Positions 57,589 to 57,922 of a DNA stretch of 64,000 nucleotides are shown here, piece after piece (the stretch's first letter is position 1; every line of letters begins with the position of its first letter). The stretch covers positions 1,232 through 65,231 of the forward strand of contig JAFZNN010000236.1 of the NCBI GenBank assembly GCA_017550895.1. Reading direction: 5' to 3'. The position numbers and the translations under genes were made by a program. Source of the stretch: Clostridia bacterium. Its GTDB lineage: Bacteria; Bacillota; Clostridia; Oscillospirales; Acutalibacteraceae. The notes beneath the pieces were generated by a model that was given only the letters and a program-made list of their open reading frames with translations, had not been told where the DNA came from and made no database searches.

Positions 57589-57654
57589 TTGCAGACATTT
57601 AATTAAAATTGTCTGCAACAAAGGATTGACATTCGGTTTTCTCTGCTTTATAAT
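57589..57654 (+). promoter_or_regulatory. consensus sigma70 promoter with upstream inverted repeat
   Basis: TTGACA(57626)-17-TATAAT(57649); TTGCAGACA-N12-TGTCTGCAA at 57589-57618. Confidence 0.85.
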
Positions 57655-57702
57655 ATTTGCCAGACGGGCTGAATCCCGCCAATCTAAACGGGAGGTAAGA
57701 TC

Positions 57703-57867
57703 ATGGAATTCGTCACCAACATCATTGCTCAGGTCAAGGATCTGGTTGCAGGTCTCGGCGAGTTCGATGCCGCTGGCGTTCTTGGTCAGGTGAAGGATAT
57801 GCTTGCAAACCTGAATCTGGACAGCATCAAGGCGTTCATCGAGAGCATCATCGCTATGTTTGCGTAA
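57703..57867 (+). CDS. 54-aa acidic amphipathic small protein (not in the ORF track)
   Basis: GGAGGT RBS; MEFVTNIIAQVKDLVAGLGEFDAAGVLGQVKDMLANLNLDSIKAFIESIIAMFA*; own promoter and terminator. Confidence 0.85.
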   Translation: MEFVTNIIAQVKDLVAGLGEFDAAGVLGQVKDMLANLNLDSIKAFIESIIAMFA

Positions 57868-57889
57868 TCTTGATTTTCGCATCCCACAG

Positions 57890-57922
57890 GTCCGGCAGTC
57901 ACCGTACTGCCGGGCTTTTTTA
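57890..57922 (+). terminator. intrinsic terminator of the small-protein gene
   Basis: CCGGCAGT-CACCGT-ACTGCCGG-GCTTTTTT. Confidence 0.85.

Follow-up and report, generated by a model that had tools for sequence, protein, structure and literature searches.

Phenol-soluble modulins (PSMs) are small amphipathic peptides of staphylococci that lack a secretion signal. They are exported by a dedicated Pmt-type ATP-binding cassette (ABC) transporter, are under AgrA control, retain N-formyl-methionine, and have surfactant or cytolytic activity. The PSM concept covers signal-less peptides that shape biofilms, kill competitors by lysis or act as signals to the host. A gene whose product invites comparison with these peptides is found in a 64,000-nucleotide stretch (the window) of an uncultured Clostridia bacterium (GenBank assembly GCA_017550895.1, contig JAFZNN010000236.1). 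Positions 57589-57922 of the window form a self-contained, very strongly expressed single-gene transcription unit with an open reading frame (ORF) of 54 codons. The peptide gene is not an artefact, and it lies outside every described family. The favoured reading, given a probability of roughly 45%, is that it encodes an abundant signal-less peptide that would act at membranes or other hydrophobic interfaces, by analogy with the beta-type PSMs.

An earlier note on this DNA had reported a promoter, ribosome-binding site, 54-codon ORF and terminator, and all of these are present where it placed them. The elements of the unit are as follows.

57589-57618, + strand: inverted repeat TTGCAGACA-N12-TGTCTGCAA (9-12-9; arms 57589-57597 and 57610-57618) with an A/T-rich centre, ending 7 nt before the -35 hexamer.
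57626-57631 and 57649-57654, + strand: promoter of the sigma-A (sigma-70) type, TTGACA and TATAAT with a 17-nt spacer, a 12/12 match to consensus.
57662-57702, + strand: predicted 5' untranslated region (UTR) of about 41 nt, with a 5'-end hairpin and a Shine-Dalgarno (SD) sequence.
57703-57867, + strand: coding sequence of an acidic 54-amino-acid micropeptide with three predicted helices (evidence: ORF, orthologues, selection, structure prediction and RNA contigs).
57888-57923, + strand: intrinsic terminator with a 12-bp stem and 6-nt loop followed by a T-run (stem 57888-57917, core CCGGCAGT/ACTGCCGG).

Shuffles of the 1.5-kb region gave only 0.7 promoter sites at the far laxer threshold of 9/12. 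Both hexamers are unchanged across all five loci in a DNA alignment. The transcription start site is inferred to lie 7-9 nt past the -10 hexamer (about 57662). The hairpin in the 5' UTR begins 1-3 nt past this predicted start in the aligned orthologue loci. In the window it is formed by CGGG (57665-57668) paired with CCCG (57675-57678), and it is retained with changed stems in two other loci (AAGG/CCTT in L007, GCAGTG/CACTGC in L008). In Bacillus, 5'-end stem-loops shield mRNAs against 5'-end-dependent degradation, and by analogy the hairpin would protect the 54-codon mRNA from decay of this kind. The SD sequence GGAGGT (57691-57696, 7 nt 5' of the ATG) and the start codon are invariant in the aligned loci. 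At the other end of the unit, the terminator shows compensatory substitutions in L008 (CCGTCGG/CCGGCGG), and its T-run is conserved. An Rfam scan of the locus gave nothing near any gathering score, so this is not a known small RNA or riboswitch.

The inverted repeat upstream of the promoter behaves differently from the elements below it. Its right arm is degenerate in the closest orthologue (96% identity), and L007 and L008 lack the repeat, with the A/T-rich character retained. It could function as an UP-element-like tract or as a regulator site. A conserved operator is improbable, and the repeat is not taken as an established one because it is unconserved in the more distant orthologues.

Three close homologues of the same length, with 96, 83 and 74% identity, were detected by a word-indexed search. 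The gene had been described as unannotated. This does not hold, since it is known to gene callers and the 96% orthologue is already in GenBank as IJK64_05070, 'hypothetical protein', from the Clostridia bacterium metagenome-assembled genome (MAG) GCA_017428525.1. Comparison of the orthologues gives ratios of nonsynonymous to synonymous substitution rates (dN/dS) of 0.16-0.46, with zero stops or frameshifts and mostly synonymous changes in the ORF. In a clade of 39-residue relatives from 20 species the pooled dS is 0.67 and dN/dS is 0.12. Stops or frameshifts in homologues without purifying selection had been named as one result that would undo the microprotein proposal; instead the frame is kept and purifying selection is found. 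The 54-codon ORF is a real, conserved gene. Its codon usage does differ from that of its surroundings, as the same note had observed. The G+C content at third codon positions (GC3) is 0.67, compared with 0.79-0.83 in six neighbouring genes. GCT is used for 3 of 8 alanine codons in the ORF and for 5 of 246 in those neighbours, GGT for 2 of 4 glycine codons versus 8 of 144, and GTT for 2 of 5 valine codons versus 16 of 142. CTT and GAT are likewise over-represented. This enrichment of T-ending codons over the neighbours is a further point in favour of high expression.

Transcripts of the unit have been recovered from natural communities. RNA contigs of 172-211 nt that span 57679-57878, and cover just this unit, occur in five gut or bovine-gut metatranscriptomes, with depths (a rough proxy for expression) of 16.9, 14.8, 4.5, 3.2 and 2.8. 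The longest of them begins at 57679. In the 60 kb examined, all remaining pieces that are specific and protein-coding have depths of at most 3.4, and the unit's top depth is roughly 5 times that of any of them. The immediate neighbour genes are not assembled in the metatranscriptome contigs. Only two tRNA genes and a conserved word of 31 nt are deeper, and the signal over all of these is cross-mapping from other organisms. The unit-specific contigs, together with a promoter cassette kept in the orthologues and in the wider family, support the earlier proposal that the 54-codon gene is highly expressed, at the level of transcription.

The peptide encoded by 57703-57867, MEFVTNIIAQVKDLVAGLGEFDAAGVLGQVKDMLANLNLDSIKAFIESIIAMFA, would release MEFVTNIIAQVK, DLVAGLGEFDAAGVLGQVK, DMLANLNLDSIK and AFIESIIAMFA on tryptic digestion. 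It has seven Asp or Glu and three Lys, a net charge of -4, and inspection of the sequence reveals no Sec signal because a basic N-region is lacking; both points agree with the first description of the peptide. An internal repeat noted there, IIAQVKDLVAGL and VLGQVKDMLANL at an offset of 19, has a BLOSUM62 score of 36. Shuffled peptides score 17.6 +/- 3.9, and 8 of 5000 reach 36, so that the repeat is significant. The grand average of hydropathy (GRAVY) is 0.82. The maximum Kyte-Doolittle value over 19 residues is only 1.05, and the helices are therefore expected to be amphipathic, not transmembrane. Helices 1 and 3 have a hydrophobic moment of 0.46. AlphaFold2 places helices at residues 2-18, 20-35 and 39-53, with a predicted local distance difference test (pLDDT) score of 75. 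For a 79-residue relative the model has four helices and a pLDDT of 71. Binding of the peptide to membranes or lipids may be expected from this pattern.

The ORF is small and hydrophobic, and its transcript is about 260 nt long with structure at the 5' end. These features might also suggest a type I toxin, that is, a small toxic membrane peptide under antisense-RNA control, or else a small RNA of dual function with an incidental ORF. A tightly silenced toxin would look like the opposite of what is seen here: the SD sequence is exposed and at consensus, as is the promoter, and steady-state RNA is high in vivo. No antisense promoter-like site was found flanking the ORF. With a maximum of 1.05 the peptide has no classical transmembrane segment, and a cationic tail is lacking. 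The protein itself is under selection, and the locus has no Rfam match. An origin of this type is most improbable. A small sporulation protein is unlikely as well, because the promoter is a sigma-A consensus.

Searches of sequence and structure libraries with the peptide have returned little. Pfam, NCBIfam, PHROGs and PADLOC gave noise only: the scores were 15.6 bits for HsbA, and 16.4 and 11 bits for ZorA, where the cut-offs are at least 250. A search of PDB sequences with a profile of the orthologues gave a single match, to a designed protein, at E=1.4. Foldseek comparison of the 54- and 79-residue models with the PDB gave generic or designed helical bundles only, at E>=0.58. An analogy with apolipoprotein repeats, drawn in the earlier note, finds no support in sequence or fold. 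The motif NLNLDSI recalls acyl or peptidyl carrier proteins, which have a conserved Ser in (D/L)-D-S-(L/I) at the start of helix II in a four-helix bundle of about 75-90 residues. This candidate was rejected. The Ser is not kept in three-helix relatives (IDLSAI, IDFKAF, LSFESI), members of 39 residues lack that helix altogether, and the window peptide has no PP-binding match.

Relatives of the peptide do exist in large number. A handful of small proteins came from an exhaustive HMMER search in which the four orthologues served as query. Iterated profile searches raised the number to 99 and later to 185, with lengths of 36-79 residues, all annotated only as 'hypothetical protein'. Their sources are MAGs of uncultured Acutalibacteraceae, Ruminococcaceae and 'Clostridia' from herbivore guts, and they were found nowhere else. 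In a scan of one genome per GTDB species the family occurs in 31 species, all of them uncultured MAGs with one copy each; the isolate names are nearly all from cattle, goat, sheep, deer or horse guts. The count of 31 is a lower bound because the pattern used for the scan did not capture the clade of the window peptide. Searches of the literature turned up nothing relevant, either on this Clostridia family of 36-79 residues or on PSM-like peptides outside staphylococci. Judged by these relationships, the window peptide belongs to an undescribed, lineage-restricted family of small, acidic, very hydrophobic peptides that are predicted to be helical.

The family is built from a repeated unit. In the alignment this consists of a helix A, a turn (G/N/K)E(F/G)(D/E)AAGI and a helix B. 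Members of 39-45 residues have two helices, those of 53-58 residues (including the window peptide) three, and those of 75-79 residues, which represent a tandem duplication, four. The turn is the best conserved part, with E20 invariant and A23, A24, G25 and I26 nearly invariant. The composition is uniform. All 98 members examined carry a net charge of -1 to -8, none contains Trp or His, one contains Cys, and Arg is absent from almost all; A, I, L, F, G, V and M make up about 68% of residues. The transcription unit is conserved along with the peptide. Family promoters match the consensus at 9-12 of 12 positions, often with a TG-extended -10, and lie 36-52 nt 5' of the ATG. A 5' hairpin of 4-8 bp with a clade-specific sequence is present in at least 20 loci, the SD sequence is GGAGG, and a stable hairpin follows the stop codon at all family loci examined. 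In one lower-GC organism, represented by the metagenomic contig L047, two paralogues lie in tandem (5001-5138, 45 residues; 5286-5414, 42 residues), and both are equipped with a separate consensus promoter (TG-extended -10), 5' hairpin, SD sequence and terminator. A tRNA-like sequence follows the pair.

Several comparisons connect this family with the PSMs. PSMalpha is by far its commonest Pfam match (23 of 98 members at E<=0.1), and four relatives of 79 residues exceed the PF17063 gathering score of 23 bits, at 24.8-26.7 bits, by summing two or three repeats. Other weak family matches are to PSMdelta, PSMbeta, bombolitin, aurein and frog antimicrobial peptides, all of them membrane-active amphipathic helices. 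The PSMbeta profile PF05480 does not match the window peptide and matches 1 of 98 members, at E=0.036. With a hidden Markov model (HMM) built from the four PSM-alpha peptides, 61 of 98 members score higher than 99% of composition-matched shuffles, more than composition alone would give, but in absolute terms the scores are low (10.1 bits for the window peptide, 11.3 for the top shuffle). For such comparisons the sequences of PSM-alpha1, PSM-alpha3, delta-toxin and PSM-beta2 were checked against PDB entries; PSM-alpha2, PSM-alpha4 and PSM-beta1 were also used. Hydrophobic moments are 0.46-0.50 in the family, 0.48-0.50 in PSM-beta and 0.62-0.69 in PSM-alpha and delta-toxin. Taken as an ordered amphipathic pattern, the likeness to PSMs appears real; homology is not established. 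The resemblance between the family and PSM-alpha may be a convergence of amphipathic helices.

A mechanism of the PSM-beta type can be outlined. The peptide would build up to many copies in the cell. Broad hydrophobic faces, set off by narrow acidic stripes, would drive self-association and binding to membranes or to other interfaces between hydrophobic and aqueous phases, as in a surfactant or membrane-active peptide. More speculatively, protonation of the Glu/Asp stripes at the pH of the rumen or hindgut could strengthen binding. The number of helices varies while the amphipathic pattern is kept, which suggests that the repeated helix, and not one tertiary fold, is the functional unit. Candidate roles include structuring of the envelope or of biofilms, competition, and sensing by the host.

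A number of results weigh against an interface-active peptide. The PSMalpha profile, with its cut-off of 23 bits, does not match the window peptide even at E<=10. Alignment of the family (98 sequences) with PSM-alpha1-4 by hhalign gives a weak match (probability 27.9%, E=6e-4, 14 columns), and with PSM-beta2 a probability of 0.3%. Chance matching among such helices is easy, since delta-toxin matches a de novo designed repeat protein at E=3.6e-4. The abundance of the product is read in part from contig depth, whose roughness as a proxy has been mentioned; the sequence-based expression signals point the same way. In the contexts examined the peptide gene has no linked exporter. That the turn is the most conserved part hints at a specific fold or partner and not a generic surfactant. 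Finally, the single copy, housekeeping neighbours and strong conservation resemble those of a core cellular component over an accessory toxin.

These last points lead to the main rival, a core helical-hairpin protein of the cell. The product would be an intracellular or membrane-peripheral structural or regulatory protein, a hairpin or bundle that engages a specific conserved partner in the envelope, division, sporulation or a membrane complex, and would not be a free surfactant or toxin. Beside the conserved turn residues, the single copy in each of 31 species and the strong purifying selection, this explanation draws on neighbours with housekeeping or sporulation-related functions (SipL-thioredoxin, MgtC, ddl and argS) and on the compact three- and four-helix AlphaFold2 models (pLDDT 71-75). 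It has difficulty with the composition: about 68% apolar or small residues and GRAVY values of 0.8-1.1 are far above those of soluble helical bundles. A change from two to four helices between clades is hard to fit to one fixed interface, no neighbour is common to all clades, and there is no fold or sequence match to a known adaptor. A partner-binding protein is considered somewhat unlikely, and the interface-active peptide is retained as the favoured reading.

The genes around the peptide differ from clade to clade. All close 54-residue orthologues lie between a divergent arsR-HMA-P-type ATPase operon and ddl-DUF1934-argS, and this position is limited to them. The 45-residue clade is downstream of SipL-thioredoxin, and one 57-residue member is downstream of a GH123-like gene. 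Two other associations recur within clades, with the following features.

L009 4433-5863: radical SAM/SPASM gene adjoining a peptide gene of 39 residues.
L013 4947-5795 and 6813-7661, also present in L014, L016, L018, L028, L035 and L039: glycerophosphodiester phosphodiesterase (GDPD) genes (glycerophosphodiester or lysophosphatidylglycerol phosphodiesterase-like).

The GDPD enzymes are membrane-anchored, and one or two such genes adjoin the peptide in the 58- and 79-residue clades. A lipid-turnover neighbour common to two clades could be meaningful or could be mere synteny. In five contexts the peptide gene is accompanied by no exporter, immunity gene or regulator, and no neighbour is conserved across all clades. 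A functional tie to the arsR-HMA-P-type ATPase operon (as a phospholamban- or KdpF-like regulator) or to ddl was rejected, as only the close 54-residue orthologues sit there.

The association with radical SAM/SPASM enzymes raises the question of whether the peptide is a substrate or precursor of the kind found among ribosomally synthesized and post-translationally modified peptides (RiPPs). In 20 of 20 GTDB loci where a 39-41-residue peptide has a radical SAM neighbour, the peptide gene is directly downstream on the same strand. The adjoining enzymes have 476-519 residues with Radical_SAM and SPASM domains; they have no NCBIfam assignment, and their best, far sub-threshold matches include the peptide maturases StsB, mycofactocin maturase and DynA. 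The window encodes an orthologue with 68% identity (3348-4733, - strand). It lies 53 kb from the peptide gene, however, and no peptide gene is beside it. The 54-, 58-, 45- and 79-residue clades have other neighbours, and the adjacency can be synteny inherited within one clade. The peptides have no leader/core division, no linked protease or exporter, no Trp or His and Cys in one member only, and their genes carry their own promoters and terminators. Since the adjacency holds in all 20 such loci, a RiPP-like role is retained at low probability, as very doubtful.

Some further observations concern RNA signal and conserved elements elsewhere in the window. The two tRNA genes at 8481-8553 and 8588-8669 (+ strand) are the source of the very deep cross-mapping RNA signal there. 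The 31-nt word lies at 3529-3559 in the radical SAM gene and has depths of 99-129 in two gut metatranscriptomes and of 63 and 8 in two others, where it occurs as tiny unitigs with flanks unlike the window. This depth was rejected as expression of the gene itself, the word being common to other organisms and not this genome's own. Homologues of the enzyme may have high expression in a wide range of gut organisms; the alternative is a chance match of the word to some other abundant source. A thiamine pyrophosphate (TPP) riboswitch aptamer is found at 3197-3297 (- strand; 50.3 bits, E=3.9e-9). The Rfam gathering score is 54.3, and the default scan of the window missed the aptamer because its score is just below this. 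It precedes a 206-residue ORF (3116-2496, - strand) that is presumably thiamine-related.

The intergenic regions on either side of the peptide unit are also of interest. Between the arsR start codon and an arsR promoter-like site (57535-57563, - strand; TTGACA-17-TACACT, 10/12) is a perfect 7-2-7 palindrome, TTGAACA-AC-TGTTCAA (57513-57528), unchanged bar one spacer base in all five aligned loci. The palindrome probably serves as the ArsR/SmtB operator for the divergent arsR-HMA-P-type ATPase operon (Cd/Zn-type). The ddl promoter region at 57931-57975 (TTGACGAATGCATATAAATATGATAGTATAAGAA) is near-invariant among orthologues that otherwise differ in the spacer, a conservation that exceeds the needs of a promoter alone. 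In the metagenomic contig L004, which carries the 96% orthologue, ddl (3258-4532) is called at 424 residues and is followed by ABC-transporter genes, not DUF1934-argS. The contig comes either from a rearranged strain or from a chimeric assembly.

Annotation of small proteins is incomplete, and of the thousands of families predicted, most are without expression evidence. The case for this family as real and abundant combines a consensus promoter, a covarying 5' hairpin, metatranscriptome support and purifying selection in dozens of herbivore-gut species. It stands out by its extreme expression signals, its modularity of two, three or four helices, its uniform acidity and its confinement to uncultured herbivore-gut Clostridia. 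If the peptides are membrane- or interface-active, anaerobic commensals of the gut would come within the PSM concept, and the family would provide a natural two-, three- and four-helix series for lipid binding by acidic amphipathic repeats. If they are a core cellular factor, the gene would be among the most highly expressed unknown genes of its lineage and worth characterizing. The most far-reaching proposal is of a first PSM-like system outside Staphylococcus: a core, abundant, signal-less acidic surfactant of anaerobic gut Clostridia, with modular helices and acid-switched binding, that shapes fibre biofilms or the cell envelope and is perhaps sensed by host formyl-peptide receptors. In this full form it is unlikely.

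Among described peptides, the leaderless class II bacteriocins (e.g., lacticin Q, aureocin A53 and enterocin L50) have no leader, 40-55 residues and a compact multi-helix structure. The family shares with them a helical, signal-less product of 39-79 residues starting with Met-Glu or Met-Asp, and the tandem paralogues in one genome and weak matches to antimicrobial peptide families could suit a leaderless bacteriocin or cytolysin for competition between bacteria. In contrast, known leaderless bacteriocins are strongly cationic, Trp-rich and encoded beside immunity and ABC-transporter genes. These traits are absent here: the window peptide has a net charge of -4 and neighbours arsR-HMA-ATPase and ddl, Trp is absent from 98 members, and immunity or ABC-transporter genes are adjacent in none of five contexts. 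The gene is also single-copy and core-like under strong purifying selection. An earlier argument from acidity against a classic cationic bacteriocin is sound, given that 98 of 98 members are acidic, and a bacteriocin role of any kind is quite improbable.

The GALA-type synthetic peptides, which are designed, acidic, amphipathic and pH-triggered, have a narrow Glu-rich polar stripe on helices otherwise of Leu, Ala and Ile. The family has a similar composition, and by this analogy protonation-dependent insertion into membranes at mildly acidic rumen or hindgut pH might, speculatively, be predicted. GALA is a designed peptide, and natural homology is not implied.

With PSM-alpha1-4 (PF17063; PDB 5KHB, 5I55) the family shares a stretch of 14 residues, AGI(I/V)xI(I/V)KxF(I/L)AxF, which corresponds to PSM-alpha positions 5-18, and the N-terminal MEFV of PSM-alpha3 is common with the window peptide. 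PSM-alpha peptides are single helices of 20-22 residues with a net charge of +2 and a higher hydrophobic moment of 0.62-0.64, whereas the peptides here have two to four helices and are always acidic. Even a wider definition of this type, a single helix of 20-25 residues with neutral or positive charge, does not describe a 54-residue peptide with three predicted helices and a net charge of -4.

The beta-type PSMs are a better counterpart. Dedicated transporter or agr genes are not next to the family loci examined, which is uninformative because the staphylococcal counterparts are also unlinked. The peptides here differ from PSM-beta in being much more acidic (to -8), in having an E-x-x-A-A-G-I turn that PSM-beta lacks, and in a host lineage of strictly anaerobic Oscillospirales in herbivore guts. 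PSM-beta1 and PSM-beta2 of Staphylococcus (PF05480; NMR structure 5KGZ) are, like these peptides, signal-less, start with Met-Glu or Met-Thr and have several amphipathic helices. They are net negative with a similar mean hydrophobicity, at about 44 residues compared with 39-54 here, and are encoded by small stand-alone, highly expressed genes that are at times in tandem. As in a PSM-beta-type peptide, the members of the family are signal-less and acidic, with 39-79 residues and two to four helices. Of the known systems compared, the window peptide is physically closest to PSM-beta.

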